Shown here: positions 44,181 through 64,000 of the stretch, piece after piece | Layout of the letters: each line of letters opens with the position of its first letter | Position numbering within the stretch: the stretch's first letter is position 1 | Sequence record: SRR31156797_335 | DNA length: 64,000 bases | Reading direction: 5' to 3' (one strand) | Notes under the pieces: generated by a model | Told to the model about the DNA's origin: nothing | Database searches by the model: none | Seen by the model: only the letters and a program-made list of their open reading frames with translations | Made by a program: the position numbers and the translations under genes

Positions 44181-44194
44181 ATAACATCATTAGT

Positions 44195-44226: not shown

Positions 44227-44231
44227 AATTC

Positions 44232-44663: not shown

Positions 44664-44889
44664 GTATGTAATTCTTGTTTAGATCTAGTAAAAATAAACA
44701 TCTCAAAGCACATATTCAAAAATAAAGCAGGTTCTAAATAGCTAAGTGTCGCAAAAAAAGAAAGTTAAGTACGAGAAGCAAGCAAATAATTTTATATATT
44801 TATATAGAACCACTTAACCGGACGAGAATTATATTATCGGAGAATTGCCCGTTTTTCTCTCCTTAACCCTAAAATATGGAGGAATAAAT

Positions 44890-45675: not shown

Positions 45676-45687
45676 TAACTACCGAAT

Positions 45688-47905: not shown

Positions 47906-47915
47906 ATCAATAGCT

Positions 47916-48203
47916 ATGGAAAAAGATCAACATACACACATTGTAAAATATAAAACCTATATCTATGTTTTAATTGGTTTGCTAATTATGACATTCTTGT
48001 CAGTTGCTGTTACAGAGATCGATTTAGGTCCATATACAGTTTCAACAGCATTACTTTTAGCGAGTATTAAATCGGTGTTGGTTTTATTGATTTTTATGCA
48101 TTTGAAATTCGACAAGAAGTTCTATGGCATAATGGTAGCAAGTGTATTTCTGCTACTAGCCTGTGTTATTATAATTACATTCTTAGACTATTTATACCGA
48201 TAG
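47916..48203 (+). CDS. ctaF: Cytochrome c oxidase subunit IV
   Basis: Three TM helices, K..LV...FMHLKFD motif. Confidence 0.88.
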   Translation: MEKDQHTHIVKYKTYIYVLIGLLIMTFLSVAVTEIDLGPYTVSTALLLASIKSVLVLLIFMHLKFDKKFYGIMVASVFLLLACVIIITFLDYLYR

Positions 48204-48206
48204 CTT

Positions 48207-49151
48207 ATGACTACCAATACAATACCTGATGCATCGAATTTTGTAAAAGGAGTAGATACTTCTTTCGAGATAATTCTGGGAATTATTTTTTTCTTTTTGA
48301 TTGCCATAACTGCAACCATGATCTATTTTGTGTTTCGTTATCGAAAAGAAAAAAATCCAAAAGCAACGCAAATACACGGAAGTGTAAGCCTTGAAATATT
48401 ATGGACGGTAATTCCTACTGCCCTGGTAATGGTAATGTTTTACTATGGTTGGATGGGCTATAAACCAATGAAAGAGGCTCCTGAAGATGCATTTACCATT
48501 GAAACTGTTGGTAGAATGTGGAATTGGCAATTTAAGTACGAAAATGGAAAAACTACAGATACATTATACGTACCTAAAGATAGAGCCATAAAACTAGATT
48601 TAGTGGCACTAGATGTTCTACATAGTGTTTACATTCCATCTTTTAGATTGAAACAAGATGTTGTTCCCGGACAGGAACAAATGATGTGGTTTATCCCTGG
48701 TCGCGAAGGTGAATTTGACCTGTTTTGTACCGAATATTGTGGTTTGCAGCATTCTTATATGCAAACCTCTGTAATTGTAATGCCTCAGGAAAAATTTGAT
48801 AGTTGGTACATAGATACTACTCAAACGGTAACTCTAATTGCCGATAGACCTGGCGCATTGGGTTATTCCATTGTTAAAAAGAATGGATGTTTGGCATGCC
48901 ACTCCATTGATGGATCTAAACTTGTTGGTCCAACGTGGAAAGGTCTTTTTGGTAAAACCGAAACTGTAAAAAGTGGAGGAAAAACCAGAGAACAAATCGT
49001 TGACAGTACTTATGTATTGAATTCAATTTACAATCCTAATGATGACATTGTAAAGGGATATCAAAAAGGATTAATGCTTTCGTATAAGAATGAACTAACC
49101 GAAGATGATATCGGTGAAATTATCGAATTTATGAAGACACTTAGCGAATAA
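48207..49151 (+). CDS. ctaC: Cytochrome c oxidase subunit II with fused C-terminal cytochrome c
   Basis: LEILWTVIP, DVLHS, CuA motif CTEYCGLQHSYM, C-terminal CLACH. Confidence 0.94.
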   Translation: MTTNTIPDASNFVKGVDTSFEIILGIIFFFLIAITATMIYFVFRYRKEKNPKATQIHGSVSLEILWTVIPTALVMVMFYYGWMGYKPMKEAPEDAFTIETVGRMWNWQFKYENGKTTDTLYVPKDRAIKLDLVALDVLHSVYIPSFRLKQDVVPGQEQMMWFIPGREGEFDLFCTEYCGLQHSYMQTSVIVMPQEKFDSWYIDTTQTVTLIADRPGALGYSIVKKNGCLACHSIDGSKLVGPTWKGLFGKTETVKSGGKTREQIVDSTYVLNSIYNPNDDIVKGYQKGLMLSYKNELTEDDIGEIIEFMKTLSE

Positions 49152-49186
49152 GTTAAAGCTCTCATTATCAAATCAAATTTTCTTAA

Positions 49187-50056
49187 ATGAATAAAATATC
49201 TGCTAAAATATCCGTACTACTGGAATTAGGAAAGTTTAAAATTGCTGTACCTATTGCCATTTCATGTTTTACTGGATATATACTTTACTCTCCCGATTTT
49301 TCAACAGAAATGCTTAAGGTTATATTTGGTATTTTTCTAATTGTAATGGGTGCTTCAGCATTAAATCATGTGCAAGAACACAAGAAGGATGCAATGATGG
49401 ATCGTACAAAGTTTCGTCCCATACCATCTGGAAAAATATCCATTTCAGAAGCCGTTAGATGGAGTGCATTTTTTCTTCTTTTGGGTTGTGGTTTATTAGC
49501 TTGGGGAGGAAATCCATTAAGTTTATGGGTGGCAATTATATCCATTTTTTGGTACAATTTGGTTTATACTCCTTTAAAGCAGTTTTCTGCCTTTGCTGTG
49601 GTTCCTGGTGCTTTAAGTGGTGCATTCCCTCCATGGATTGGATGGATTGCAGCTGGTGGTGACGCATTTGCTCCACCTATTCTTGCTTTGGCTTTCTTCT
49701 TCTTTATTGGGCAAATTCCACATTTTTGGCTACTCCTATTGTTATATGGAGAAGATTACAAACAAGCCGGATTTAAAGTATTAACAGATGTTTTTAGTCG
49801 CAAGCAAATTCATAAAATTACCCTGATATGGATGTTGGCAACAATTGTTGTAGCCCTTCTTCTTCCGGCTTTCAGCGTAATTTCATCTGAAGTTTTAATA
49901 TGGGTTTTACTGGCATTATCCCTTTGGATTATTCCCAATAGTTTTATTCTCTTAAAAGGTAGTGAGCGCCTAAATATTAGAAAATTATTCCTTCGACTGA
50001 ACTTTTACTTTTTGTTGATCATGATCATGATAAGTGTCGATAAATTCTATTTTTAA
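49187..50056 (+). CDS. ctaB: Protoheme IX farnesyltransferase (heme o synthase)
   Basis: ALNH..E..KDAMMDRT..RPIPSG, YTPLK, QIPHFW, DYKQAG. Confidence 0.92.
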   Translation: MNKISAKISVLLELGKFKIAVPIAISCFTGYILYSPDFSTEMLKVIFGIFLIVMGASALNHVQEHKKDAMMDRTKFRPIPSGKISISEAVRWSAFFLLLGCGLLAWGGNPLSLWVAIISIFWYNLVYTPLKQFSAFAVVPGALSGAFPPWIGWIAAGGDAFAPPILALAFFFFIGQIPHFWLLLLLYGEDYKQAGFKVLTDVFSRKQIHKITLIWMLATIVVALLLPAFSVISSEVLIWVLLALSLWIIPNSFILLKGSERLNIRKLFLRLNFYFLLIMIMISVDKFYF

Positions 50057-50143
50057 AATGTTATTTTAATGTTATTACCTATTACAATCTAGACATTTAC
50101 ATGAAACTGTTCTAATTTTATATATCAACTAAACCAGACAAAT

Positions 50144-50464
50144 ATGAAAAAAATAATCATTCTAATATTGGCAATAGGACTATTTGCTGCATGTGAGTCA
50201 ACTGCAAAAAAAGGCGACAAAGCCAATTCTGAAACTACCACACAAATAGTAGAATATGAAGAAGTAGAAATTAATGTTACAGGAATGACTTGTACCGGTT
50301 GTGAAAAAACGGTTGAAAATGGTCTTAAACAAGTTGATGGCGTTAAAGAGGTTCGGGCATCTCACAAAAACAACAAAGTCACAATTAAGATTGAAAAAGA
50401 TAAAGTAAATCGAGAGGCACTAGCTCAAAAAATCGAAACCGTTGGGTACGCGGTAACAAAATAA
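50144..50464 (+). CDS. HMA-domain (CopZ-like) lipoprotein
   Basis: Lipobox FAAC, GMTCTGC. Confidence 0.85.
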   Translation: MKKIIILILAIGLFAACESTAKKGDKANSETTTQIVEYEEVEINVTGMTCTGCEKTVENGLKQVDGVKEVRASHKNNKVTIKIEKDKVNREALAQKIETVGYAVTK

Positions 50465-50468
50465 TATA

Positions 50469-50496
50469 GACACTTCCTTAATCGGAAGTGTTTTTT
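50469..50496. terminator. Terminator between the convergent cox and nos clusters
   Basis: GACACTTCC-ttaatc-GGAAGTGTT followed by T-tract. Confidence 0.75.
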
Positions 50497-50498
50497 AT

Positions 50499-51281
50499 TT
50501 AAAAATCTTTCCTGTTGGAATATCGAACCAGTAGATAAACTGGAATTACCACCCAAGTGATTAGTGCAATGGAAGATGCAAGAATTCCTTTCCACGCTCC
50601 AAAAAACTTGTAAAATACTGCCCCGGTATATCCCATTAAAGCAGACGTATCCAAAAATAACATTATTAAAACCCGCCCAAGATCAATTGGGTTAAATAAA
50701 GTAAATCCTATTGCCAATTTTTCGGTTGGATATGCTTCAAACCAAACCAAAATTAACAGAAATATTCCATCATAAATAATGGACATAAATAACCAGATAA
50801 ACAAAGCTAATCCAAAGCCTTTAATTCTATTTTCAAAACGTAAGGCAACAAAATAACTCAGTAAAGAAAAGATTAGACCTAAAGTAAACCCAACAATTAG
50901 TAACACCATAAAATTAGCTAGATGGTCGCTTCCTAGTATTCCCCAAAAAACAAATGGCAAGCCTACTCCCAAAATAAAACTGAACGAAAGGGATAAACTT
51001 AAACCCAAATATTGTCCTAAAAAAAAGGATTTCCGCTTAATAGGTTGTGCCAATAACAACTCTGCAAATTCTCTTGAATTGTATTGATAGATAGCTCCAA
51101 AAACAGTAGCAACAAGCGGAATAAGAATGAGTATCACATTCATCATACTAATGATTGATTTAGTAATATCTCCATTCATATATAGGATTGATCCGGTAAT
51201 CAGAAGGAAAAATAGAAAGTAGACCAAGCTCCAGGTGCTTCTAATTAAATCGAAGAAACAATATTTAAATATCTTATACAT
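50499..51281 (-). CDS. nosY: Nos ABC transporter permease
   Basis: YNSREFAELLLAQP, NPIDLGR...ALMGYTGA; last gene of the nos cluster. Confidence 0.9.
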   Translation of the reverse strand: MYKIFKYCFFDLIRSTWSLVYFLFFLLITGSILYMNGDITKSIISMMNVILILIPLVATVFGAIYQYNSREFAELLLAQPIKRKSFFLGQYLGLSLSLSFSFILGVGLPFVFWGILGSDHLANFMVLLIVGFTLGLIFSLLSYFVALRFENRIKGFGLALFIWLFMSIIYDGIFLLILVWFEAYPTEKLAIGFTLFNPIDLGRVLIMLFLDTSALMGYTGAVFYKFFGAWKGILASSIALITWVVIPVYLLVRYSNRKDF

Positions 51282-51981
51282 CTTGTTTTTCTATTAGGTT
51301 CGTAATAGCCATTTCCAAACTTCCTGCTCCATTTCTTTTATTCAAATCATGAACAGTACCTTTAAAGAAAATATCTCCCTCCAGCAGAAATACAATTTCA
51401 TCAGATATCTCCTCAACCAAACTCATTATATGCGTTGTGTAAATTATCAATTTTCCTTTTGCTTTTTCATTGTTCAAAAGTTCTTTCAATTTAGAAATTG
51501 CAACAGGATCAAGCCCAACTGTAGGTTCATCGAGTATAATAACAGGAGAATCAAACATGAACGCTAGCACCATATTAACTTTTTGCCTGGTACCTCCGGA
51601 TAAATTCCGTAAGGGTTTATGAAGTTCTTTCTCTAAGCCAAACCATTTGATTAATTCCTCATCATTTGCATCCTGTTTTCTAATATCATGTGTTAAGTCA
51701 ATCAATTCCTTAATTTTTAAATTTTCAGGAAACTTGGCAATTTGAGGCAAATAGCTAATGTGCTTACGATATTCCCAATCTCCTAAAATTGATTTTTCCA
51801 TATATTGAATTTCACCTTTTTGTGGAATTACCAAACCAAGAATACATTTAATAAGAGTTGTTTTTCCCGAACCATTAGGTCCTAAAATTGCAATTATCTT
51901 ATTTTTATCAAGCGAAAGCGATATTCCCTTTAACACCTGATTTTTTCTATAGCTTTTTTCCAGGTCTGTAATTTCAATCAT
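51274..51981 (-). CDS. nosF: Nos ABC transporter ATPase
   Basis: GPNGSGKTT, LSGGTRQK, LDEPT; between nosD and nosY. Confidence 0.9.
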   Translation of the reverse strand: MIEITDLEKSYRKNQVLKGISLSLDKNKIIAILGPNGSGKTTLIKCILGLVIPQKGEIQYMEKSILGDWEYRKHISYLPQIAKFPENLKIKELIDLTHDIRKQDANDEELIKWFGLEKELHKPLRNLSGGTRQKVNMVLAFMFDSPVIILDEPTVGLDPVAISKLKELLNNEKAKGKLIIYTTHIMSLVEEISDEIVFLLEGDIFFKGTVHDLNKRNGAGSLEMAITNLIEKQDV

Positions 51982-53215
51982 ATCTGATTTCTTTTTTTAG
52001 AGGCTTGTGATCCATTAAATAATCTGGAGTCAATACTGGATTTACCTTCTCTGCAAAATTAATTACATCAATTAGCATGCTTCTCATGAGGATACTCGAT
52101 GAAGGAATTTTCCCAATTATCCTTGAAAAAAGTTTTACTGGTCGATAAGGAACATCTCCTACTCCATCTTTATCCAAATCATATCCTGTATATAAACTCC
52201 AATAATTTCCATTAAAATTGTTGCTTTTCGAATTTCCAACCACAGCAACTTCAAAAGTATTATTGAAAAAATTATTTTGATAAAACTGATTATCAGTACT
52301 ACTACCATATATTTTTAAAGCCCAACCATTCTGTTTAAATTCATTTTGATGTACTTGCACTCGATTTGAGCCTTCCATATAAATGCCAATAGTATTCGAT
52401 TCAAAGGAATTTCTCTGGATTTCACTATCAGTGATATCCTTAAGCAGTAAACCATATGAAGCACTACCCCAATTAAATTCAAAAACATTTTTATACATAC
52501 GAATGTGTTTTGAAAACATTACTGCGACACCTGCACCATTCGATCGAAATGTATTGCCAATGTATTTATCATGATCGGAAAACATGAAATGAAGACCATA
52601 TCGTATATTGTCTACCACAAGATTATTAATCACCGTACTTTTATCTACAAACTCAAGATAAATCCCGTCACGGTGATTTCTGGTTTCATTGTTCTCAACC
52701 AAGATATTTCGGCAATACCACAGGTGAATGGCATTACCTGAAGACATTTCATCCTGAGCAATACCTTTAATGAAGTTATTTCGAATGATGCAATCTTGTG
52801 AGTTTTTTAAAAAGATCCCGAAAAAGGTTGTTTCCAATCTGTTATCTTCAAAAACACAGTAACGCTGTTTGTTCACTTTTATGGCAGCATGATCTTTAAT
52901 GTAGCTTACTTTTACATTTTGCAGCTGTACTCCCTTTATGGTGACACTATCCGATTCTATGGTGAAAATCTCTTTCTTCTCTATGTTCTCAATTATAGGA
53001 TAGTGAATTCCAATAATGGTAAGAGGATGTTCTATCAATAGATTTGGTTCAATGTACTCACCAGTTTGAATAATGATAGTATCTCCTTTCTGACTCTTTT
53101 TAATAGCCTCCGATAAACTTGAAATGGCACCTCCTACTTCAACTTTAAACTGATCAGCCCAAGAAAAAAAAGACAATTGTAAAAGAACTACAATACATAG
53201 ATATATTTTTCTCAA
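51974..53215 (-). CDS. nosD: Nitrous oxide reductase maturation protein NosD (TTG start)
   Basis: Beta-helix repeats, GNAIHLW, RDGIY, RYGLHFMFS, GNYWS.Y.GYDLDKDGVGDVPYRP. Confidence 0.93.
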   Translation of the reverse strand: MRKIYLCIVVLLQLSFFSWADQFKVEVGGAISSLSEAIKKSQKGDTIIIQTGEYIEPNLLIEHPLTIIGIHYPIIENIEKKEIFTIESDSVTIKGVQLQNVKVSYIKDHAAIKVNKQRYCVFEDNRLETTFFGIFLKNSQDCIIRNNFIKGIAQDEMSSGNAIHLWYCRNILVENNETRNHRDGIYLEFVDKSTVINNLVVDNIRYGLHFMFSDHDKYIGNTFRSNGAGVAVMFSKHIRMYKNVFEFNWGSASYGLLLKDITDSEIQRNSFESNTIGIYMEGSNRVQVHQNEFKQNGWALKIYGSSTDNQFYQNNFFNNTFEVAVVGNSKSNNFNGNYWSLYTGYDLDKDGVGDVPYRPVKLFSRIIGKIPSSSILMRSMLIDVINFAEKVNPVLTPDYLMDHKPLKKEIRYD

Positions 53216-53221
53216 ATCAAT

Positions 53222-53665
53222 CTATTTTAGTTCATTAAACTTACGATTAAGAGTTTCCCAGTTGTAGATATCACCACCATAACTCTCTTGAGCTTTCTCT
53301 GCTCCAGCTTTGGTACTAAAAGCCGTAAGATACATTCCCATTGGGCTAGGTAAATTTTTTGCATGAAGATAAAAAGCATTTCTTGCCTCCGCTAGTTTTC
53401 CAGGTGTATCATATGAAGTAATCATTATAAATGCCGCATCACTTTCTACAACATTCCCTTTGTGAATAAAATCAATCAAACACTCAACTGAATCAAATTT
53501 GTATACTTTTGATTTTTTTGTAACTAACTCGGTGCCATATTGTTTTTCCATTATCATCATTTTGCAATAATGGCATTCATCCTGACCATACTGAATTGGT
53601 TGCTCTTTTGGTTTACATGCGACAAAAAACACCAACATGAAAATAAAACAGATGTACTTGTTCAT
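53222..53665 (-). CDS. nosL: NosL copper chaperone lipoprotein
   Basis: Lipobox FVAC, DECHYCKM, KFDSVEC, SPMG. Confidence 0.92.
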   Translation of the reverse strand: MNKYICFIFMLVFFVACKPKEQPIQYGQDECHYCKMMIMEKQYGTELVTKKSKVYKFDSVECLIDFIHKGNVVESDAAFIMITSYDTPGKLAEARNAFYLHAKNLPSPMGMYLTAFSTKAGAEKAQESYGGDIYNWETLNRKFNELK

Positions 53666-53667
53666 AA

Positions 53668-54240
53668 TTATTTCTTTTTTAGGGTAACAACATAAGATAA
53701 GGCGTTAAAAACTACTGCCAGGAATAGGAACAATGATCCGATATGCGGCCATGAAATGGCGTTAAAATTCAGTAACATTTTCGATCCTATCAAAGGTGGC
53801 TGATAAACCATACCTGGAATTTTAATTGGGGCGCTTGGACTCAAATTATGACCATAATCATATTCCCATAAATAAAAATCATAAATGCCTAAGGCTCCTA
53901 AAATGATTAGTAAAACACCCCAGTAAATAAAGTATTTCGTTTTCTTCGTTATCGCTAATCCCAAACCAAGAACAACCATAAATATAACTACAAAAGGAAA
54001 GTATTTTAACTCCGGAATCGAGTCAGGTTCAATATATTTCATCCCAATGTAATGATTCAAAATATTAATGTTCTGAAGAGTACTAGGTGTATCTCCTGTG
54101 ATTTTATTCACCCAAATGTACATGTTAACACCATCGGGATACTGGGGCGCTTCCAATCTAATTTTCCAAAGTGGAAATAAGAACAATCCTAGAAGCATTA
54201 CTGATGCAAGACACATCAGAATTATTGATTTTTTATTCAT
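53668..54240 (-). CDS. nosB: Clade II nos membrane protein (NosB-like)
   Basis: PLWKIRLEAPQYP, NINILNHYIGM, WEYDYGHNL, YQPPLIG; immediately after nosZ. Confidence 0.8.
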   Translation of the reverse strand: MNKKSIILMCLASVMLLGLFLFPLWKIRLEAPQYPDGVNMYIWVNKITGDTPSTLQNINILNHYIGMKYIEPDSIPELKYFPFVVIFMVVLGLGLAITKKTKYFIYWGVLLIILGALGIYDFYLWEYDYGHNLSPSAPIKIPGMVYQPPLIGSKMLLNFNAISWPHIGSLFLFLAVVFNALSYVVTLKKK

Positions 54241-54281
54241 TCTTTCAATTTTCGGTTAGTGTAATCGTATGAGAAGAGATG

Positions 54282-54318
54282 AAAAATCCAGCAGAACCTT
54301 TTATTCGGTTCTACTGGA
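54282..54318 (-). terminator. Internal terminator/stabilising hairpin after nosZ
   Basis: Minus strand UCCAGUAGAACC-gaauaaaa-GGUUCUGCUGGA-UUUUU. Confidence 0.7.
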
Positions 54319-54331
54319 TGATCTATTTTAA

Positions 54332-56302
54332 TTATTCGTCAAAATCTCCAACACTCCACTTTAATTCAACATTTGAATTCTTTGGAGAAACTCTAATATA
54401 ACCTTGCATTTCCTGGTGAAGAGCAGAACAGAAATCGGTGCAATAGAATGGATAAATTCCTTCTCGCTGAGGATTCCAAACCAAAGTTTCCGTTTGACCA
54501 GGCATTACCAAAATTTCAGATGTACGAGCTCCCATTACACTTAATCCATGAGGTACATCCCAATCCTGTTCCAGATTCGTCAAGTGGAAATAAACCTTAT
54601 CTCCAACTTTAATACCTTCAATATTATCTGGTGCAAAATGACTTCTTATCGATGTCATATAAATGTGTACATCAGTTCCCTCTCTAACCACTTTAGCCTC
54701 ATCTTCCGACTTAATATGATGTGGATGCTTATTCTCATCCAGTTTATAAAATTTAAGAGAGTTTTTCATTATAATATCAGCAGGTATGGCTTGTGCATAA
54801 TGAGGTTCTCCAATTGTTGGAAAATCCAGCAACAATTTCATTTTCTCTCCTGAGATATCAAAAAGTTGAGCTGAATGTGCCAATTCTGGTCCTGTAGGTA
54901 AATAACGATCTTTTGTAATCTTATTCATAGCAACCATATACTTCCCAAATGGCTGTTTGGAATCTCCTCCAGGTATCATAAGGTGCCCTACTGAATAGTA
55001 ACAAGGAGCGCGATCCACAACTTCCCAGGTTCCCAACTTCCATTTCACAACTTCCGATGAAATAAAGAAAGTTGTATAAGCATTCCCTTTACCATCAAAT
55101 TCTGTATGCAAAGGACCTAAGCCACTACTTTTAACCGAACCTGCAAGAACTGCTTCATAGTTGATAACCGGAATTCCTTCAACTTCATCATCAAAATTAT
55201 CTTCTTTTATTGCTTTTAACATCTTCGTAAAAGAGTGTACCGTAACATCTGATGATAATTTTCCATTCCCACAAATGTATTCTCCTGTTGGATCAACATC
55301 AACACCATGAGGTGATTTCGGAGTCGGTAAATAGTAAATTAAACCTGGACATTCTTCAGGAATAAGAACTTTCACTTCTTTTTTCATCTCTGAAGTTGCC
55401 ATGTGTGTATGCTCATCGTAAACATTGTGAGCATAATTGGCTGGTAATGTTTTAAATCTACCAGCGGCAAGATATTCTTCCGCCTTTTTCCAATTTACTG
55501 CGGCGATATAGTCCTTATCTTTTTGAGATGCTCCAATTTCCAATAAGGTATTACTTTCCTCAGTATTGTAACTTGTAAAGAAAGTCCATCCATGGGATTT
55601 TCCTTTTCCTGAGTGCGCTAAATCATAATCATATCCAGGAACTAAAATCTGAAAAGCAACGTCCATTTCTCCTTTTTCTCCAACACTTATATAAGTTAAG
55701 GCACCTTTAAAATTCTCTTTATAGGTATTAATAGCTACATCTTTTTGAGGAATAGGCACACTAAATCGAGTTCCTGCAACTACATACTCCGAATTTTCAG
55801 TGATAAATGGAGAACTATGGTTTCCTCCACTATTAGGAATTTCAATAATTTCAGCCGTTTCAAATGTTGTTAAATCAATACGAGCAATTCTTGGAGTATT
55901 GTTTCCATTAATAAATATCCATCGTCCATCAGGGACTCCATTGGTTTGCGAAAGTTCAGGATGATGAGAATCGTCCCAAGGAATAAAACCAAATGAAGTA
56001 TTCAGCATTGGCTTAGTTTCCTCATTAAAACCATATGCTTTTTCAGCATCAACAGAGAAAACAGGGATTACTTTAAACAATCGACCTGAAGGCAAGCCAT
56101 ACACAGAAAGCTGACCACTAAATCCTCCAGAAAAAAAGGCATAAAACTCATCAAACTCACCGGGAGCAACATAAACTTGAGAGGCTGCATCACTATCTCC
56201 AAAAGCACCTTTTGATTGTTTGGATGATTCACTATTACATGCGGATAAACTTATTCCTATTACCAGAATAAAAGCAAACCACTTTAAATAATTCTTTTTC
56301 AT
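54332..56302 (-). CDS. nosZ: Nitrous-oxide reductase, clade II (Sec/lipoprotein signal)
   Basis: Lipobox LSAC with no twin-Arg; CuZ His motifs DSHH, GNH, PHG, GPLH, GHL, EPH; CuA DVPHG...CTDFCSALHQEM. Confidence 0.97.
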   Translation of the reverse strand: MKKNYLKWFAFILVIGISLSACNSESSKQSKGAFGDSDAASQVYVAPGEFDEFYAFFSGGFSGQLSVYGLPSGRLFKVIPVFSVDAEKAYGFNEETKPMLNTSFGFIPWDDSHHPELSQTNGVPDGRWIFINGNNTPRIARIDLTTFETAEIIEIPNSGGNHSSPFITENSEYVVAGTRFSVPIPQKDVAINTYKENFKGALTYISVGEKGEMDVAFQILVPGYDYDLAHSGKGKSHGWTFFTSYNTEESNTLLEIGASQKDKDYIAAVNWKKAEEYLAAGRFKTLPANYAHNVYDEHTHMATSEMKKEVKVLIPEECPGLIYYLPTPKSPHGVDVDPTGEYICGNGKLSSDVTVHSFTKMLKAIKEDNFDDEVEGIPVINYEAVLAGSVKSSGLGPLHTEFDGKGNAYTTFFISSEVVKWKLGTWEVVDRAPCYYSVGHLMIPGGDSKQPFGKYMVAMNKITKDRYLPTGPELAHSAQLFDISGEKMKLLLDFPTIGEPHYAQAIPADIIMKNSLKFYKLDENKHPHHIKSEDEAKVVREGTDVHIYMTSIRSHFAPDNIEGIKVGDKVYFHLTNLEQDWDVPHGLSVMGARTSEILVMPGQTETLVWNPQREGIYPFYCTDFCSALHQEMQGYIRVSPKNSNVELKWSVGDFDE

Positions 56303-56574
56303 ATTCCTAAGGTTTAATGTTAAGTAATATCATATATTGAAAATTTTCACTAACAAATTCACTTAGGAAATTAACCTATAAACAGAGATTATAACTCCCC
56401 TATAAGTTATTCTATTTTGATGAATTTCTTCATCAAGTTAATTCCCATAATAGATGGGCTACCTTATTATATATCAACAAAACCCATTCTATCAAAAAGT
56501 TACGTAATATTAAAAATAGAATCAATTTAATTAAGAGAGTTCTATGTCTTTTTTTAAGAATACTCGAATAAGTA

Positions 56575-57552
56575 TTATTTTATGGTTCTGAAATATTCCA
56601 AAACCTTTCTTGTCTCATCCTGAGTAAGATTTTGGTTTGCCATAGGCGAGATATACCTTTGTAATAACTCTTTTGCAATAGGATCCTTTTCTACCATTCC
56701 TTCCGGATTTAGTATCATATTCATGATCCATTCAGGAGTTCTTCTATCCATAATACCTTTTGGTGCAGGACCAATATAACGCTTCGTTGGTTTATGGCAA
56801 CTTGTACAAAGACGTTTATATAATTTCTCTCCCTCTTCTGCCATTTTCATATTTACAGGACCTAAAGTAACCGATGACACCGGACCAACACCTTTTGCTC
56901 CTGAGTAAAGTTTAGCCAAACGAGCTTCAAATTCTGCATTGCTCTCTTTAGGACCTGTATCCGCCAATTCAAAATTATCTTCTCCTAATTTTTGTCCTTG
57001 TAATTTAACTTTTACATACTCAATAATTTTCCATCTGTCTTCCGGTTTAATTTGCGGACCATGAGCTCCCATTACACCAAAACCAACAGTAATTACATGA
57101 TAAATTTCACCACGTGGTGTTGCTTTCATCACATCGGTAACCAAACTTCTTGGAGAGTAAGGATATTTTCCACTTGTAAATAAAAATCCTTTCCCATTTC
57201 CCTTTAAGCCATGGCAATTGTAACAGTAAATTTTATAAAGTTTTTTACCTTCGGCTACATCTCTCATTTTCATCTCATCAGGATTAAATACAGTTATTCC
57301 AGCAAGTTGTCTGTTCTCAATTGTTTTCTCAAAATCGAATGGTATCATTCCTCTAGGCACAGTACCTTCTGGCGGTAATCGTAAGGATTTACCATCGTCG
57401 AAATTAGGATTGCTCGAATAAGGTTCATATGCTCGTGAATCCATCATATCAGGGTAATAAGAATAGCCTGGATGGTTGCGATCCTCATCACATGAAGTGA
57501 ACAAAGCTAAATGTAGAATTAATCCGAAAGTATATATTAAGTATCTTCTCAT
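56575..57552 (-). CDS. actE: ActE-like lipoprotein cytochrome c fused to a second (nos-type) cytochrome c domain; diheme
   Basis: Lipobox FTSC, YYPDMMDS, PPEGTVPRG, CYNCH (aa110-114), YHVIT.G.GVM, EDRWKI; then linker and KGVGPV...CTSCH (aa249-253)...RRTPEWIMNMILNP...PMANQNLT. Confidence 0.85.
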   Translation of the reverse strand: MRRYLIYTFGLILHLALFTSCDEDRNHPGYSYYPDMMDSRAYEPYSSNPNFDDGKSLRLPPEGTVPRGMIPFDFEKTIENRQLAGITVFNPDEMKMRDVAEGKKLYKIYCYNCHGLKGNGKGFLFTSGKYPYSPRSLVTDVMKATPRGEIYHVITVGFGVMGAHGPQIKPEDRWKIIEYVKVKLQGQKLGEDNFELADTGPKESNAEFEARLAKLYSGAKGVGPVSSVTLGPVNMKMAEEGEKLYKRLCTSCHKPTKRYIGPAPKGIMDRRTPEWIMNMILNPEGMVEKDPIAKELLQRYISPMANQNLTQDETRKVLEYFRTIK

Positions 57553-57565
57553 AGCTAATTATTTA

Positions 57566-58729
57566 TCAGGTTTCGTAATGGAAACTTTCTTCTAACAAAG
57601 GATCATTTTTACTCAATAAAGGAGCTTTTGCCAATGAAGCAAAAACGACATATAGAAATCCGCCTAAAAACAAGCAAACAAATCCGATTTCAACCATTCC
57701 AATTTGGGCTGCTTTTCCAATGGTACCCGGAATAACCAATAGATATATATTCAACCACTGACCAACCAGAACAATAACAGCCATAAAACTCAGCCATTTC
57801 AAATTTCTTTTCGAATTTCTTGTCATCAATCCCAAAAATGGAATTAAAAAATTCATAACCAGAATGGTGAAAAATAAAATGGTATGATCATTCAATCGAG
57901 GAGCAAAATATGCTGTTTCCTCTGGAATATGGCTATACCAAATCAACAGATACTGCGAGAACCACAAATACATCCAGAAAATACTAAAGGCAAATAAATA
58001 TTTACCCATATCATGAATATGCTCTTTGTTTATAAATTCTAATTTACCTTGTGATTTTAAAAAGCTAATCATTAAAATAATACAGGCAATTCCGCTAACA
58101 AACAAGCCAATAAAAACGAACCATCCGTAAAGTGTGCTAAACCAATGTGCATCGATAGACATTAACCAATCCCAACTCATGGTTGAACTGCTTACAGCAA
58201 AGAAAACCATGAATAAAGCTGCCAATAACTTCCCCTTCTTGTAATATTTAACATCTGTAGATAAATCCTGATGTAATGAATTTTTCCTTAATAAATAGCC
58301 TAAACCTATCCAGCCTGCAAAGTAAATTGCCATTCGGATAAAAAAGAATGGGATATTTAGATAAGCTGCTTTTCCTTCCAAAATAGGATCGTGTAAATTT
58401 TCGTGCGACCAATGGTAAATATCATGCATTCCGAAATACAACAGAAACATTAAAACTGCTGATATTGGAAGAAAGGCAGACATTGCCTCAGGAATTCTTT
58501 GTAATGATGTATGCCAACCCGAATAAGCGATTTTGTGCAATGCCTGAAATACCACTCCAAATAAAGCTATGAAAAGAAAATATAGATTATTTATTAAAAA
58601 ATTTGTCCATAACCTCTGTCCGTTGGGCGACTCGATAAAATATCCAAATAGCAATAAAACGATTCCAAGTCCGCCTAAAGCCATTAAGAAGTTTCGAGTT
58701 TTACGGGAAAATGTATAATTGTTATCCAT
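57566..58729 (-). CDS. actF: Alternative complex III membrane subunit ActF
   Basis: RIPEAM, YHWSH, YLNIPFFFIR, WDWLMSIDAHWFSTLYGW, HDMGK, FSQYLLIWY.HIPEE. Confidence 0.9.
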   Translation of the reverse strand: MDNNYTFSRKTRNFLMALGGLGIVLLLFGYFIESPNGQRLWTNFLINNLYFLFIALFGVVFQALHKIAYSGWHTSLQRIPEAMSAFLPISAVLMFLLYFGMHDIYHWSHENLHDPILEGKAAYLNIPFFFIRMAIYFAGWIGLGYLLRKNSLHQDLSTDVKYYKKGKLLAALFMVFFAVSSSTMSWDWLMSIDAHWFSTLYGWFVFIGLFVSGIACIILMISFLKSQGKLEFINKEHIHDMGKYLFAFSIFWMYLWFSQYLLIWYSHIPEETAYFAPRLNDHTILFFTILVMNFLIPFLGLMTRNSKRNLKWLSFMAVIVLVGQWLNIYLLVIPGTIGKAAQIGMVEIGFVCLFLGGFLYVVFASLAKAPLLSKNDPLLEESFHYET

Positions 58730-58749
58730 AATCAAATGGTTTATCCAGT

Positions 58750-59271
58750 TTATGATTCAATCTCCTTTACCTGTATATTTTGCGCTTCCTCATTTAAAAG
58801 AATACTTTTTACATTCTCATCCTGATTTCCTTGCTCATCCAAATCAACAATGATTACAAAATGATCATCTGTAATTCTTTCATCATGAATTACATTGTTG
58901 GCTCCAGGTCCTAATTTCGAAACAATAAAAAAGGCTGTTGCCATTCCAAATGCAGCAAACAATACGGTTACTTCAAATGATATTGGTATAAATGATGGAA
59001 TTGCAAAATGCGGCTTACCTCCAATAAACAAAGGATAATCAACCACAAATGCCCAAGTTTGAAACCCGAAAGCGACTGCCAAACCAATAGCTCCGCAGAT
59101 AAATGCAACAGTTGGTAAATTGGAACGCTTGTATCCCAACACATGATCTAAACCATGCACCGGAAATGGTGTAAGAACATCCTGTATAGAGATATTTTTC
59201 TCTCTTAAATCCTTAGCTGCGCGAAGAAGATTTTCCTCATCTTCAAAATAGGCTAAAATGTATCTTCTCAT
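58750..59271 (-). CDS. actD: Alternative complex III subunit ActD (DUF3341)
   Basis: TPFPVHGLD, DYPLFIGGKP, FIPISFEVTVL, RITDDHF. Confidence 0.9.
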   Translation of the reverse strand: MRRYILAYFEDEENLLRAAKDLREKNISIQDVLTPFPVHGLDHVLGYKRSNLPTVAFICGAIGLAVAFGFQTWAFVVDYPLFIGGKPHFAIPSFIPISFEVTVLFAAFGMATAFFIVSKLGPGANNVIHDERITDDHFVIIVDLDEQGNQDENVKSILLNEEAQNIQVKEIES

Positions 59272-59273
59272 GA

Positions 59274-60647
59274 TTATTCGTTTTTATCAGTTACAGCTTT
59301 CTTTTCTCCTGAACTTTTCAAAACACTCTTCACCTCAGCAATCGCAATTACCGGGAAGACTCTAATAAATAGTAGGAAACAGGTAAAAAACAATCCTAAA
59401 GTTCCAATGAAAATTCCAACTTCAACAATTGTTGGCTCATACATTGACCAACTTGAAGGAAGATAATCACGATGCAAAGAGGTTACAATGATTACAAATC
59501 GTTCGAACCACATTCCAATATTTATGAAAATGGAAAGAATGAACGTAAACACGAGGTTTCGACGTAGTTTTTTAAACCACAACAATTGTGGAGAAATAAC
59601 ATTACAAGTCATCATTATGGCATAAGCCCACCAATATGGTCCGGTTGCACGATTCAAAAATGCATATTGCTCATATTCCACTCCCGAATACCAGGCAATA
59701 AACAACTCAGTGATATAAGCAATACCAACAATTGAACCTGTTGCAATAATAATTTTATTCATCGATTCGATGTGCCCAACCGTTATGTAGTTCTCTAAAT
59801 TCAACACTTTTCGTGTGATAATTAACAAGGTAAGCACCATGGCAAATCCCGAAAATATTGCCCCTGAAACAAAATATGGTGGAAATATGGTGGTATGCCA
59901 ACCTGGAATTACTGATGTTGCAAAATCGGAACTTACAATACTATGAACCGACAGTACAAGAGGTGCTGCCAATCCAGCTAATATTAAACTAATGGTTTCA
60001 TGTCTGCTCCAATGTTTTGCAGATCCGGTCCAACCAAAACTTAAGAAACCGTAGATTGCTTTCTTAAATTTAGATTTCATTCTATCTCGTATAGTTCCGA
60101 TATCAGGAATTAAGCCTACATACCAAAATAGAAGTGATACACTAAAATAAGTACTAATTGCGAACACATCCCACAATAGTGGCGAGTTAAAGTTCACCCA
60201 TAAATCACGCGTATTTGGATATGGAAATACAAAGAAACCCAAAAGTGGTCGTCCCATGTGGATTAATGGAAACAATCCAGCACACATAACCGCAAAAAGT
60301 GTCATTGCCTCGGCTGAACGGTTGATACTTGTTCTCCATTTTTGTCGAAACAAGAGCAATATTGCAGAAATAAATGTACCGGCATGACCAATACCTACCC
60401 ACCAAACAAAGTTGGTAATTCCCCAACCCCATCCAATAGTTTTGTTCAATCCCCAGGTTCCTATTCCTTCCCAAATGGTGTAAGCCATCATAAGCAGTCC
60501 AAATAGCAAGGCGGAAGAAGTTAAAGCTATCCCTGCATACCAAGCCTTTCCTGCTTTTCCTTCAATAGGAGCAGATATTTCATCTGTTATTTTTTTGTAA
60601 GTCTTTTCCCCTGTTATAAGAGGCTCTCTAATTGGCGACACATACAT
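59274..60647 (-). CDS. actC: Alternative complex III quinol-oxidising NrfD/PsrC-type subunit ActC
   Basis: NFVWWVGIGHAGTFISA, RSAEAMT, HMGRP, SPLLWDVFA, VHSIVS.DFA, WFERFVI. Confidence 0.94.
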   Translation of the reverse strand: MYVSPIREPLITGEKTYKKITDEISAPIEGKAGKAWYAGIALTSSALLFGLLMMAYTIWEGIGTWGLNKTIGWGWGITNFVWWVGIGHAGTFISAILLLFRQKWRTSINRSAEAMTLFAVMCAGLFPLIHMGRPLLGFFVFPYPNTRDLWVNFNSPLLWDVFAISTYFSVSLLFWYVGLIPDIGTIRDRMKSKFKKAIYGFLSFGWTGSAKHWSRHETISLILAGLAAPLVLSVHSIVSSDFATSVIPGWHTTIFPPYFVSGAIFSGFAMVLTLLIITRKVLNLENYITVGHIESMNKIIIATGSIVGIAYITELFIAWYSGVEYEQYAFLNRATGPYWWAYAIMMTCNVISPQLLWFKKLRRNLVFTFILSIFINIGMWFERFVIIVTSLHRDYLPSSWSMYEPTIVEVGIFIGTLGLFFTCFLLFIRVFPVIAIAEVKSVLKSSGEKKAVTDKNE

Positions 60648-60657
60648 AGGCGCGGTT

Positions 60658-63621
60658 TTATGATTCGTTCGACTTTTTGTTTCTAATTTTCGTTAAATAA
60701 CTAACCGATGGAAGAGTGTGAATTTCCTCCAGAAGATGGTAATTTCTCTTACTAGAAGTTTCCTTTACCAACTTACTTTCCTTATTATTCAAATCTCCAA
60801 AAATGATGGCTCCGGAAGGACAAGCTTGTTCACAAGCCGTTTTAATTTCCCCATCTTTGACTTTTCGACCATCAATTTTCGCATTTAATTTTCCTTCCTG
60901 AATTCTCTGAACACACAAAGAGCACTTCTCTATAACTCCCTTTGCTCTTACGGTTACATCTGGATTGAGAACCATACGTTTCAAATCAATGGTCATCTCT
61001 GCCACATCATGCAAATTATTTGGAATCGAATCGGCTTTTGTATAATCAAACCAATTGAATCGACGTACTTTATACGGACAATTATTTCCACAATACCTGG
61101 TCCCAATACACCTATTGTAAGCCATTTGATTCAATCCCTCCGAACTATGGTTGGTAGCAGCAACAGGACAAACATTTTCGCATGGTGCATTATCGCAATG
61201 CTGACACATTACCGGTTGATAGGATACATCTGGATTAAAGTCATCGCCTGAGAAATACCTATCGATACGAATCCATGACATTTCGTGAGCACGAATTACC
61301 TCTTTTTTTCCAACAACAGGAACATTATTTTCTACCTGACAAGCCACTGAACAAGCTCCACAACCAACGCAAGAATTCAAATCAACCACCAGTCCCCAAT
61401 GATGATTCGGGAATGTTGGTTTTTCGTAAATGGATGCATTTTCGAATTTGTGGTGTGCTTCGTTTCCTGCAGCAGGATTATCTTTATACTCGTCTAAATT
61501 AGCCTCTCGCACAATAGCTCTCCCCTCCATAGAGTGATGAGTTTGTGTCATTGCCAATTCATAAATTTCTTCTGTTTTCTTTAACTCAACTCCTTTTTTA
61601 TCAAGCTCTTTTAAGGAACTCACATTAACACCAACATTTTTCCCAACAACACCAGATACTTTTCTTCCATATCCCGATGCTACAGCTACAGTATTGTATG
61701 CTTGTCCTGGTAAAATGTAAATAGGCAATTTATGTCCTGAGTTTAACTCCACCACATCGCCTGTTGAAAGGCTTAGCTCCTCCGCTTGTTTCGGTGAAAT
61801 TGTAAGATAATTATCCCAACAAACTTTGCTGATAGGATCAGGCATTTCCTGCAACCAAGGATTGTTTGCCATTCGACCATCTCCTACTGCAATAGATTCA
61901 TAAACCTGTAGTTCTATTTTATTACTCTGTGAGGATTTGGTCATTTTATTCATTAAAACATCAAATCCTTTGGCATTCAATTTTGTATTAAATGATGATT
62001 TAAAGGATGGCTCAAATACTCCTTGCTGCAAGGTATTGTTCCAAAATGTAATGAAGTTTGGATAGGCAGCTTGCATTGGATACATGTTCTTTTCCCAATA
62101 TCTTTTTAAGTATTGCAAGTAATCAGGGCTTTCACCCATCCAAGTCAGCAATGATGCTTGAAATTGTCTGGTATCAAACAGTGGGCGAATTCCTGGTTGC
62201 ATCAAACTAAAGCGAGATGTTTTTGGTTCAAAATCACTCCAACTCTCTAAAAAATGATTGTCTGGAGCAGACATTTTCATTAATACCGATGTTTCATTTG
62301 GAGCCTCATCCATTGATAATGTAAAGCCAACTTTCCGTAAGGCTTCCCCAAATTCTTTTCCTTTAGAATAATCAAAAACCGGATTAACATCTGCTGTAAT
62401 CAATCCTTTTACCTTGCCAGATTTTAGATCTGATAAAAGATTTTCCATATCAGAATCAACAGCCTGCAGGGTGTTTAGTTTTTTATCAACTCTTAATGTG
62501 CTTCCGTAATTTTCAAGCTCAAAATTGATTGCATTTACCAATATCTGAATGCTAAGATCATTCTCACCCGCTACAACCAAGGACTTCCCTTTTTTCGCCC
62601 ATAATTCCTTAGCTATTGCTTTCAAGTCTGCAGAGGCTTCAGTAATTGGATAAGTTGTGCTTCCTTTTAATTTTAGAATTTCATTGTACAGTTGAGCAAT
62701 TAATCCAGCTTGTTCCGAAGGCTTAACAGGAATTCTTTGATCTGCATTACTTCCTGTTAGAGACATTCTTGATTCAAACTGGATGTGTCTTGACATAGAC
62801 GTATTTCCATCACTCAATTTTCTCTTTTTGGCATATTGACGTATGTGCTCCACCGGCATGAGCCAATTACCAAGAAAATCTGCATCAAAACTTACAATCA
62901 TATCGGCATAATCAAATCGGTAATCCGATATTCCAGCCTCTCCAAAACAGGATTTATTTGCTTGAATCAGAGCTGAAGCAGATTGACTATCGTATTGTAC
63001 CCATTTTATATTCGGATACTTCGCAATAAAATTTGTAATTAGTTCAATTGTTGTAGGACTGTAAATTGTTGGAGTAAGCAAAACAACCTGATCTTTTGCA
63101 TCTCGTAAATCCTCCAATTCCTTAACAACTAGCTCATCCAACTCTTCCCAGGTAGATTTCTTATCACCAATTTTAGGATTCTTATTTCGACTTATATCGT
63201 ACAAACCTAAAACTGAAGCTTGTACTCGTGAACTTGTTCCTCCATAAGTAACTCCAGATAAATCGTTGCCTTCAATTTTAATAGGTCGACCTTCTCTTGT
63301 TTTAATAAGGATACTGCAATACTCACTTCCTTTCGCAAAAGTGGACGCATAATAATTTGCCTTACCAGGAGTAACCTCTTCCGGTTTTACCAGATATGGG
63401 ATGGCTTTTTGAACAGAGTTCTCGCAACTAGCCAGAACTGTGCTTATTGCCAAACTGTAGCCACATAACTTTAAAAAATCTCTTCTATTACTTTTCGAAT
63501 CAGCCTGATCTCCATCGAAGATATCCAGAATTTGCTCCAAATTTCCTTTTGGTATTTTATTATCAGGGCTTGTATCTTGTCCGTTTTTACGTTCGGTAAG
63601 GCTTTTCCAGTATTTCTTCAT
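60658..63621 (-). CDS. actB: Alternative complex III subunit ActB (molybdopterin-oxidoreductase-like + Fe-S domains)
   Basis: MKKYWKSL, Tat motif RRDFLK, REGRPIKIEGN, NNPWLQEMPDP; Fe-S motifs CVGCGAC, CQHCDNAPC, CIGTRYC..NCP, CSLC...CEQAC. Confidence 0.94.
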   Translation of the reverse strand: MKKYWKSLTERKNGQDTSPDNKIPKGNLEQILDIFDGDQADSKSNRRDFLKLCGYSLAISTVLASCENSVQKAIPYLVKPEEVTPGKANYYASTFAKGSEYCSILIKTREGRPIKIEGNDLSGVTYGGTSSRVQASVLGLYDISRNKNPKIGDKKSTWEELDELVVKELEDLRDAKDQVVLLTPTIYSPTTIELITNFIAKYPNIKWVQYDSQSASALIQANKSCFGEAGISDYRFDYADMIVSFDADFLGNWLMPVEHIRQYAKKRKLSDGNTSMSRHIQFESRMSLTGSNADQRIPVKPSEQAGLIAQLYNEILKLKGSTTYPITEASADLKAIAKELWAKKGKSLVVAGENDLSIQILVNAINFELENYGSTLRVDKKLNTLQAVDSDMENLLSDLKSGKVKGLITADVNPVFDYSKGKEFGEALRKVGFTLSMDEAPNETSVLMKMSAPDNHFLESWSDFEPKTSRFSLMQPGIRPLFDTRQFQASLLTWMGESPDYLQYLKRYWEKNMYPMQAAYPNFITFWNNTLQQGVFEPSFKSSFNTKLNAKGFDVLMNKMTKSSQSNKIELQVYESIAVGDGRMANNPWLQEMPDPISKVCWDNYLTISPKQAEELSLSTGDVVELNSGHKLPIYILPGQAYNTVAVASGYGRKVSGVVGKNVGVNVSSLKELDKKGVELKKTEEIYELAMTQTHHSMEGRAIVREANLDEYKDNPAAGNEAHHKFENASIYEKPTFPNHHWGLVVDLNSCVGCGACSVACQVENNVPVVGKKEVIRAHEMSWIRIDRYFSGDDFNPDVSYQPVMCQHCDNAPCENVCPVAATNHSSEGLNQMAYNRCIGTRYCGNNCPYKVRRFNWFDYTKADSIPNNLHDVAEMTIDLKRMVLNPDVTVRAKGVIEKCSLCVQRIQEGKLNAKIDGRKVKDGEIKTACEQACPSGAIIFGDLNNKESKLVKETSSKRNYHLLEEIHTLPSVSYLTKIRNKKSNES

Positions 63622-63676
63622 AGGTATGTCAAAGTAAAAAGTTCAGTAATTGGTTTAGAGATTAATGAATGTGTGC

Positions 63677-64000
63677 TTAGTAGTGGCAGCGTGCACATTC
63701 ACGTCCTCCAATATCGGTAACTCTAACACTATCAATTGCTCCTGTTGCCAATTCTTCATGCAATTTCTTGAATCCTGCAGAATAGTATCCATTCTCTCTA
63801 AAATCAACTGCAGTTTTATCATGACAATCCAAACACCATCCCATTGATAAATCTTCAACTTGTTTTACTACATGCATCTCTTCAACAAGTCCGTGACATT
63901 CCTGGCAATCTCGTTTCCCAACATTCACATGTTGTGCATGATTAAAATAGACATGATCAGGAAGCTGATGAATACGAATCCATTCCACCGGTGTATTATT
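63677..64000 (-). CDS. actA: Alternative complex III multiheme cytochrome ActA, 3' part (runs off window end)
   Basis: Frame open to window edge; EWIRIHQLPDHVYFNHAQHV, CQECH, MGWCLDCH, CARCHY. Confidence 0.92.
   Translation of the reverse strand, partial: NNTPVEWIRIHQLPDHVYFNHAQHVNVGKRDCQECHGLVEEMHVVKQVEDLSMGWCLDCHDKTAVDFRENGYYSAGFKKLHEELATGAIDSVRVTDIGGRECARCHY

Follow-up and report, generated by a model that had tools for sequence, protein, structure and literature searches.

The analysed stretch of DNA, 64,000 nucleotides from sequence record SRR31156797_335 (the window), comes from a marine Bacteroidota genome and ends in twelve genes that all lie on the minus strand and run from position 64000 down to 50499: an operon for alternative complex III (ACIII) in the order actA-B-C-D-F-E and, after it, a clade II nitrous oxide reductase cluster, nosZ-B-L-D-F-Y. 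The last gene of the operon, actE, is fused in frame to the coding sequence of a second monohaem cytochrome c domain, of the type that in related nos loci is encoded by a free gene ahead of nosZ. We consider it likely that a standard Bacteroidota nos island has docked on a housekeeping ACIII, with the presumed donor of NosZ tethered to ActE. The open reading frame (ORF) listing and family scans bear out the earlier note on this DNA in its account of twelve co-oriented genes from actA to nosY, with actF before actE and the fused actE next to nosZ; ActF was recognized by PDB chain 6btm_F and the fusion by 6btm_E and 3cp5.

The ActE–cytochrome c fusion

Fused ActE is a single dihaem ORF of 325 residues (56575–57552, minus strand) in two parts:

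56997–57552, minus strand: ActE proper, residues 1–186 of the fusion, with lipobox Cys21 and a monohaem domain (CYNCH); matches 6btm_E over residues 25–186 (7.7e-32)
56575–56996, minus strand: linker and nos-type monohaem cytochrome c domain (CTSCH), residues 187–325 of the same ORF; matches 3cp5_A over residues 219–324 (1.9e-25)

Across 37 aligned fused proteins the lipobox cysteine (C21) and the residues of haem 1 (C110/C113/H114) and haem 2 (C249/C252/H253) are invariant. The junction and linker residues are also conserved in this alignment, which makes a single fusion event plausible. Among the 120 best protein clusters listed from a large protein collection, 61 cover at least 92% of the fused query; the fused form is real and is not rare in metagenomes. 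The signal peptide of ActE (…LFTSC), like that of NosZ, closes on a lipobox-like cysteine. The N-terminus of NosZ reads as a lipoprotein signal (LSAC; …ISLSAC), and lipid anchors may hold the two proteins to the outer side of the inner membrane.

Origin of the additional domain

Species-representative genomes were scanned with the fusion protein and the best 80 loci were mapped with the window proteins. Seven of these carry the fusion (L001–L007), 72 have the C-terminal domain as a free gene and one (L056) is of another kind. nosZ starts no more than 800 bp downstream of the free cytochrome gene in 68 of the 72 loci and is followed by nosB, nosL, nosD, nosF and nosY; contig ends cut three of the four exceptions. 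No fused locus that we mapped has a separate cytochrome c gene ahead of nosZ. The ten fused copies in a tree of 87 cytochrome domains form one clade nested among the free ones. Given this position of the free homologues in 68 of 72 loci, we identify the extra domain of ActE, by homology, as the nos cluster's own leading cytochrome c; one fusion event plausibly accounts for both the tree and the alignment.

The layout is not the same in all fused loci. In a Sunxiuqinia metagenome-assembled genome (MAG) of the Prolixibacteraceae (L003/L096) and in a second Bacteroidales MAG (L006/L097) the genes run nosZ-nosB-nosL-nosD-nosF-nosY-actABCDF-actE::cytC. The fusion and its linkage to nos therefore persist where the cytochrome domain does not adjoin nosZ.

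Distribution in the family and the nearest relative without nos

The family survey covered the Marinifilaceae (97 species genomes), represented among the mapped loci by L001, from an Ancylomarina sp., and L002, from a Marinifilaceae MAG; NCBI places Ancylomarina in this family. ActE occurs in 28 of the 97 genomes and NosZ is confined to exactly the five in which ActE is fused:

Full-length fused ActE: 5 genomes (G001, G002, G407, G413, G455); NosZ in 5
Unfused ActE (N-terminal domain only): 23 genomes; NosZ in 0
No ActE match: 69 genomes; NosZ in 0

The common layout in the family is an actABCDFE operon convergent with a copZ-ctaB-cox cluster, and the cox cluster directly adjoins actE in eight of 12 unfused loci. 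The nos genes sit between the act and cox clusters in four of the five fused family loci, the fifth ending at a contig edge. The window has the same arrangement, with the oxidase genes directly adjoining nosY:

44845–50464, plus strand: convergent caa3-type oxidase cluster, comprising SCO1, coxI, coxIII, caa3 subunit IV, coxII with a cytochrome c domain, haem O synthase and a CopZ-like gene, assigned by family profiles

The statement of the earlier note that no oxidase genes follow act thus holds for the co-oriented genes only, the caa3 cluster being convergent beyond nosY.

Comparison by blastn with the nearest relative, L123 (genome G470), delimits the nos-bearing segment. Window positions 40525–50464 correspond to L123 1–9955 (91.5% identity) and 56997–64000 to L123 10015–17022 (89.3% identity), leaving between them:

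50465–56996, no strand assigned: 6.5-kb segment with the linker and the cytochrome domain of the fusion, the gap of 272 bp and the genes nosZ to nosY; replaced in L123 by ∼60 bp

The ∼60-bp replacement in L123 holds a terminator hairpin, and there is no nosZ anywhere in the G470 genome. The act genes flanking the nos segment are 92–99% identical to those of a nos-less relative, and DNA identity to L123 falls to 68–86% within the actE N-domain, against ∼90% in the flanks. No noteworthy direct or inverted repeats mark the borders of the segment, and its genes include neither an integrase nor a transposase. Gain in the window lineage and loss in G470 are, on the sequences compared, both compatible with the data. 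Two stretches of the window, 46105–46904 (coxI) and 59993–60192 (actC), are 99.5–100% identical to L123 against a background of ∼90%, which suggests recent recombination between the two species.

Could the adjacency be incidental, the nos island having settled in a permissive intergenic site and the extra ActE domain serving the caa3 or cbb3 oxidases and not NosZ? Among solved structures the domain is closest to the cytochrome c of Rhodothermus marinus (3cp5), a protein described as a carrier to the caa3 oxidase; an oxidase cluster lies next door, and the window's nosZ seems to have an upstream control region of its own. The distribution argues the other way, since the family genomes with the domain are exactly those with nosZ (five of five genomes with the fusion, none of 23 with unfused ActE), as do its nesting among cytochromes whose genes precede nosZ and the Bacteroidales loci that keep the nos linkage in a different arrangement. 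Proximity of ACIII and nos also recurs in other forms, convergent in L056, divergent in L113 and again in Methylacidiphilum. We regard an incidental adjacency as very unlikely.

Two of these other forms deserve a brief description. L056 (MAG Bacteroidetes bacterium RA.bin148) has the canonical actD-E-F order, an unfused ActE and no cytochrome match; its act genes are convergent with a complete nosZ-to-nosY cluster ∼3 kb away. In L113 (G088:C4:1-19900) a canonical ACIII operon is divergent from two tandem NosZ-like genes (frames of 749 and 798 residues, 29% and 36% identical to the window NosZ) with a weak cytochrome c match behind them; this looks like a different NosZ type beside ACIII.

Conflicting gene trees

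The trees of ActF and of the ActE N-domain disagree about where the window belongs. In the tree of ActF (389 residues, 98% identical in the window and L123) the window and L123 group together (support 99), and the fused state is dispersed at a cost of seven changes. On the ActE N-domain tree two changes of the fused state suffice, and L123 clusters with unfused sequences (98/90); the best ActE tree unites the six fused family rows in a clade, though a weakly supported one (59/98.5). Approximately unbiased (AU) tests reject the clade of six fused family rows on the ActF data (p = 1.4e-32) and the grouping of the window with L123 on the ActE data (p = 0.033). As the history of actE::cytC differs from that of actF, this part of the locus appears to move as a cassette: the simplest reading of the sequences is that actE::cytC and nos have been gained, lost or exchanged as a unit through recombination in the conserved flanking genes.

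The ACIII operon and the order of actF and actE

The genes ahead of the fusion are as follows.

63677–64000, minus strand: actA, C-terminal 107 codons only, the window end cutting the gene; multihaem cytochrome c with Pfam Cytochrome_C7 and NCBIfam QrcA-like matches
60658–63621, minus strand: actB, 987 residues, molybdopterin-like and Fe–S domains; QrcC-like (202 bits), QrcB-like and 4Fe-4S dicluster domain matches
59274–60647, minus strand: actC, NrfD-type quinol-interacting membrane subunit (PF03916 NrfD, 7.7e-21)
58750–59271, minus strand: actD, small membrane subunit (PF11821 ActD, 192.6 bits against a cut-off of 25.7)
57566–58735, minus strand: actF, second NrfD-like membrane subunit, ahead of actE (PDB 6btm_F, 4.6e-91; 6f0k_F, 8.5e-55)

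Judged from these matches the operon is an ACIII operon: it encodes the two NrfD-type subunits ActC and ActF, an ActB in which a QrcB-like match (residues 86–670) is followed by a QrcC-like match (residues 742–978) with 4Fe-4S domains, ActD, and a monohaem ActE with a predicted lipid anchor. ActA of ACIII is a pentahaem protein; the multihaem cytochrome matches of the window's actA come from its last 107 codons alone, and an ActA homologue holds the same position in L001, L120 and L123.

The earlier note had read the order F before E (canonically ABCDEF) as a rearrangement; the comparison of loci contradicts this. The order-level sample comprised 401 genomes, with ActD in 70, NosZ in 20 and both in 14. 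All eight fetched loci with an ActC 76–86% identical to that of the window have the actABCDFE order and an unfused ActE, with no nos genes in the fetched stretches, and all seven fetched loci with an ActC ∼58–61% identical have the canonical DEF order. Overall, the window ActC is 76–95% identical to those of DFE-type loci and 57–61% identical to those of the canonical type. The DFE order was also found in 15 of the 15 family loci examined, and F followed by E has been described for Melioribacter roseus (PMC3534657). Because eight of eight unfused DFE-type loci show it without nos genes in their stretches, the F–E order is unrelated to nos; as far as these loci tell, it is the normal order of the whole ACIII subclade and no nos-linked rearrangement. 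ActD and NosZ share a contig in two of the 14 genomes with both, many of which are fragmented assemblies: adjacent and fused in G001, and divergent, ∼7 kb apart, in G088; the ActD loci of G052, G119, G207, G266 and G403 lay outside this comparison.

The nos cluster

The nos genes of the window are as follows.

54332–56302, minus strand: nosZ, clade II (Sec-type) N2O reductase, 656 residues (TIGR04246, 937.2 bits against a cut-off of 625)
53668–54240, minus strand: nosB, polytopic membrane protein of 190 residues, with the NosB motifs LNHYIGM and YGHN and no Pfam or NCBIfam match
53222–53665, minus strand: nosL, copper chaperone lipoprotein (PF05573 NosL, 2.1e-14)
51974–53215, minus strand: nosD (TIGR04247, 417.6 bits against a cut-off of 300)
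51274–51981, minus strand: nosF, ABC ATPase, by ABC ATPase families, position and 48–77% identity to the NosF-position genes of related nos loci
50499–51281, minus strand: nosY, ABC-2 type permease, with no family match, by its conserved place after nosF and 42–81% identity across loci

NosZ scores 375.1 bits with the model for the twin-arginine translocation type (TIGR04244), under the cut-off of 625. It has no C-terminal cytochrome domain of the cNosZ type: the model match stops at residue 640 of 656 and there is no CxxCH motif. A nosB homologue follows nosZ in every complete nos locus mapped, and both motifs used to assign it are NosB motifs (PMC9697520).

The interval from nosZ to nosY holds nosB, nosL, nosD and nosF only, without NapG/NapH-like nosG or nosH genes. 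As the earlier note had stated, no family for NosR, NosX, NosG/H, a Rieske protein or cytochrome b turned up in the window (Pfam and NCBIfam scans of most, not all, ORFs of at least 100 residues). Clade I uses NosR and Wolinella-type clade II uses NosGH/NosC for electron supply. The lack of both had been taken as distinctive, which it is not: it is the rule for Bacteroidota clade II clusters, and the free-cytochrome loci, mapped without NosR or NosGH queries, showed only cytC-nosZ-nosB-nosL-nosD-nosF-nosY. Clade II nos clusters without nosR and nosX are also known from the literature (PMC9697520).

Intergenic regions and expression

Three features of the intergenic sequence stand out:

56491–56555, minus strand: conserved non-coding block of ∼65 nt in the 272-bp gap between actE::cytC and nosZ, near-invariant in an alignment of the window, L119 and L120
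54286–54319, minus strand: terminator-like hairpin just past nosZ, a 13-pair stem followed by a T-run
50468–50493, no strand assigned: bidirectional terminator-like hairpin between nosY and the CopZ-like gene, from the hairpin scan

The block lies just past the actE::cytC stop and contains two TTGAT motifs ∼30 nt apart and a T-rich element ending in TTTTTG; among 133 loci its 14-mer at 56491–56504 occurs in L119 and L120 alone. The block is a candidate promoter or control region of nosZ and may include an activator half-site. The gap is 270–370 bp long in the window, L119 and L120, compared with ∼35–40 bp in L001, L002 and L121, where its shortness suggests co-transcription. No terminator-like hairpin lies between actE::cytC and nosZ. 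Cytochrome genes and nosZ are also spaced apart in 35 of the 68 free-cytochrome nos loci (L022, L023, L026, L028 and ∼30 more), where 150–800 bp separate them, a distance that would accommodate a small additional gene or a control region.

A perfect 8-4-8 palindrome in the window's gap ahead of nosZ, at 56417–56436 (TTGATGAA, 4 nt, TTCATCAA) was considered as an FNR-type box (TTGAT-N10-ATCAA) and rejected, as at least one such box occurs in 39 of 100 shuffles and it is conserved in none of the 133 loci. No canonical TTGAT-N4-ATCAA stood out in the gap on inspection by eye.

Four RNA-library runs were compared with positions 54000–59300, as short Logan contigs only. Run X10 yielded exact pieces of nosZ (55177–55381) and of the actE N-domain and actF (57309–57589, 58126–58276 and 58298–58697). 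Since such libraries can contain DNA, these contigs indicate neither co-transcription nor its absence.

Electron supply and the role of the fusion

We propose the following arrangement, in which the direction of electron flow, its branching and the physiological role are inferred. A standard clade II nos cluster sits between older neighbours, the housekeeping actABCDFE operon and the convergent caa3 cluster. Its first gene, that of the monohaem cytochrome c, has become the 3′ part of actE by in-frame fusion, so that the presumed NosZ donor hangs by a conserved linker from lipid-anchored ActE. Menaquinol would be oxidized at ActC, and electrons would pass through the Fe–S clusters of ActB and the haems of ActA to the ActE haem, and from there, by way of the tethered cytochrome c, to CuA of NosZ. 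The ActA/ActE region would be the branch point between O2 and N2O, with ACIII still serving the oxidase, and the actE::cytC-nos unit would be gained, lost or exchanged as a cassette by recombination in the flanking act and cox genes.

The gene content of the relatives bears on what ACIII feeds. G001 and G002 each encode a single ActD, lack cytochrome b and contain two genes for haem–copper oxidase subunit I; cytochrome b is also absent from G413, G407, G470 and G468. With a single ActD and no cytochrome b, the fused ACIII of G001 and G002 must serve O2 respiration too. This bears directly on the proposal of the earlier note that, in place of NosR/NosGH, a rearranged ACIII is devoted to N2O respiration and forms a distinct electron supply that could conserve energy. 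The adjacent, co-oriented act and nos genes fit that proposal, as does the failure of NosR, NosGH or bc genes to turn up in the scanned window ORFs, and at least one genome appears to have a dedicated copy: in the Sunxiuqinia MAG (G003) a canonical ACIII lies by the oxidase genes and the fused DFE-type ACIII lies with nos. Against it stand the F–E order of eight of eight unfused DFE-type loci without nos seen and of 15 of 15 family loci, the same order in print for M. roseus (PMC3534657), the single ACIII of G001 and G002 in genomes without cytochrome b, and flanking act genes 92–99% identical to those of a nos-less relative. Energy-conserving N2O respiration is further disfavoured by a Flavobacterium with the same cluster type, which showed no growth on N2O (PMC9697520). 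We hold a dedicated, rearranged complex to be improbable. What stands of the proposal is the physical and evolutionary coupling of ACIII and nos; the dedication to N2O falls with the single ActD of G001 and G002 and with the family ACIII operons convergent with caa3. Energy conservation at ACIII may occur, and is offered as a proposal only.

The two operons of G003 are separate: L098 (G003:C21) is a DEF-order ACIII convergent with a caa3 cluster, and L003/L096 (G003:C40) is the DFE-order operon with fused ActE, downstream of nosZ to nosY. The fused ACIII of G003 may be nos-dedicated. The second oxidase subunit I gene of G001 and G002 (G001:C1:353091-354383 and G002:C8:44900-46192; frame of ∼720 residues) lies ∼7 kb past the caa3 cluster and probably belongs to a cbb3-type oxidase; a CcoG-like Fer4_5 protein is encoded near it, and the window has no counterpart at ∼7 kb distance.

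Several observations weigh against the docking of a nos island on a shared ACIII with a tethered donor. The flow from ActE through the fused domain to NosZ is deduced from the fusion and the co-occurrence, and the genomes behind the co-occurrence counts are related by descent, so that the counts do not amount to independent events. Support for the fused clade in the cytochrome tree is moderate (Shimodaira–Hasegawa-like approximate likelihood-ratio test, SH-aLRT, 84), and the groups submitted to the AU tests were chosen after the trees had been seen. The AlphaFold model of the fusion (mean pLDDT, the predicted local distance difference test score, of 64.7) shows two cytochrome folds and a low-confidence linker and is insufficient for docking or a fold search. 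The window's 272-bp gap with its conserved block looks like a separate nosZ control region, and no contig from the four RNA-library runs covers or bridges 55801–56987. As to other routes, cytochrome b matches occur in G455 and in G004, G003 has two ACIII operons, and a second ACIII or a bc complex elsewhere in the window's organism is possible. Fer4_5 proteins of NapH/NosH size (265 residues), unlinked to nos, are found in three of the five fused genomes, so that another quinol dehydrogenase is possible in those three.

The same wiring could also operate not as energy-conserving respiration but as an electron sink or for N2O detoxification during transient anoxia, and we keep this as a possibility of lesser weight. 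Flavobacterium azooxidireducens, which has the same nos cluster type, did not grow while it consumed N2O (PMC9697520). The oxidation of quinol and the reduction of N2O are both periplasmic, so that net charge separation, and with it any gain at the ACIII–NosZ step, depends on ACIII being electrogenic. ACIII has been described as coupling quinol oxidation to proton translocation (PMC7439408, PMC5928083), upstream dehydrogenases would conserve energy regardless, and the upkeep and spread of a dedicated fusion suggest selection for flux; these points tell against a mere sink.

Returning to the tethered donor, a wider reading can be put forward tentatively: the fusion would mark a physical ACIII–NosZ assembly, ActE would be the side exit of ACIII that feeds clade II NosZ in Bacteroidota generally, with a free lipid-anchored cytochrome as the link in most lineages and a link made permanent by the fusion in this one, and the module would spread as a cassette with act and cox homology arms. 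If so, ACIII would be the main quinol dehydrogenase behind N2O consumption in a phylum that dominates clade II nosZ in many environments; in one wastewater survey 70.6% of clade II MAGs were Bacteroidota (PMC11409646). The Bacteroidota clusters come without NosR and NosGH, the two known quinol-linked modules, and the fusion is a clue of the Rosetta-stone type to the electron route into their NosZ, one that points to ACIII, and specifically to ActE, upstream of NosZ. A second acceptor of ActE, a ‘yet-unidentified partner’, has been proposed from the genetics of Flavobacterium johnsoniae, and the fusion supplies a candidate for this second route (PMC8552683). The fused locus also offers an experimental handle, as truncation of one domain should separate N2O reduction from O2 respiration; L001 and the protein P0006 stem from named isolates of Ancylomarina.

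Comparison with known systems

The nos cluster has the same genes and order as the Bacteroidota-type clade II cluster described in Flavobacterium, with a Sec-type NosZ, the NosB motifs and no nosR, nosX or nosGH in the clusters as described there (PMC9697520). It differs from the Flavobacterium clusters in that ActE contains the leading cytochrome c as its C-terminal domain and that the cluster lies between ACIII and caa3 genes. All six ACIII subunits of the window have clear homologues in the structures from F. johnsoniae (6BTM, a supercomplex with aa3 oxidase) and R. marinus (6F0K), and, as in these, ActE has a lipobox cysteine and one CxxCH in its ActE part. Unlike them, the window has the order ABCDFE and an ActE with a second haem domain of ∼135 residues; its ActF is ∼60 N-terminal residues shorter than 6btm_F.

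The Wolinella-type NosGH/NosC1C2 module shares with the window a Sec-type NosZ, NosB and monohaem cytochromes c as the last carriers. The window cluster differs in having no NosG or NosH, a NosZ (656 residues) without a cytochrome domain and ACIII as the quinol oxidizer; no bc complex was found in the relatives checked, G001 and G002.

Clustering of ACIII with nos is already known from Methylacidiphilum caldifontis IT6, in which a clade II cluster, nosCZBLDFYC, lies inside the ACIII cluster, with aa3 and cbb3 oxidase genes adjoining and no nosR or nosX (PMC11102522). IT6 belongs to another phylum and has two free nosC genes, its nos genes interrupt the act cluster whereas those of the window come after it, and it is not known to carry an ActE fusion (PMC11102522). 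The novelty of the window lies in the fusion, a variant of known systems on which the earlier note had touched only briefly. We found no description of an ActE–cytochrome c fusion linked to nos in a literature search from which subscription journals and supplements were excluded. A functional parallel is CcoP of Neisseria gonorrhoeae, in which electrons are led off to nitrite reductase by an additional haem c domain at the C-terminus (PMC8552683). There too a haem c domain added to a subunit of an aerobic complex provides a side branch to an enzyme of denitrification; CcoP belongs to a cbb3 oxidase and not to ACIII, and the acceptor is AniA, reached via cytochrome c2, and not NosZ. The ACIII operon of M. 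roseus runs actA, B, C, a DE fusion, F and E, and is followed by oxidase genes (PMC3534657). It resembles the window in having actF ahead of the terminal actE and oxidase genes adjoining; it differs in that the extra ActE-like domain is on ActD, the terminal, free ActE has a single haem and the nos cluster is described as lying elsewhere in the genome.

Neighbouring genes

The profile scores of the oxidase cluster were 665.8 bits for TIGR02891 (just under the cut-off of 670.75), 181 for TIGR02866, 63.3 for TIGR02229 and 186 for TIGR01473 (under the cut-off of 210.3); SCO1 was assigned by PF02630. Beside the cluster is a further cytochrome gene:

44232–44663, minus strand: monohaem cytochrome c of 143 residues (PF00034 and PF13442)

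It is kept at the same position in L122, L123, L126, L128–L130, L132 and L133. Further away, at 20611–21831, the window encodes a HydF-type [FeFe]-hydrogenase maturase, with an aspartase/fumarase-class lyase and a sigma-54 response regulator encoded alongside, a neighbourhood that fits a facultatively fermentative organism.

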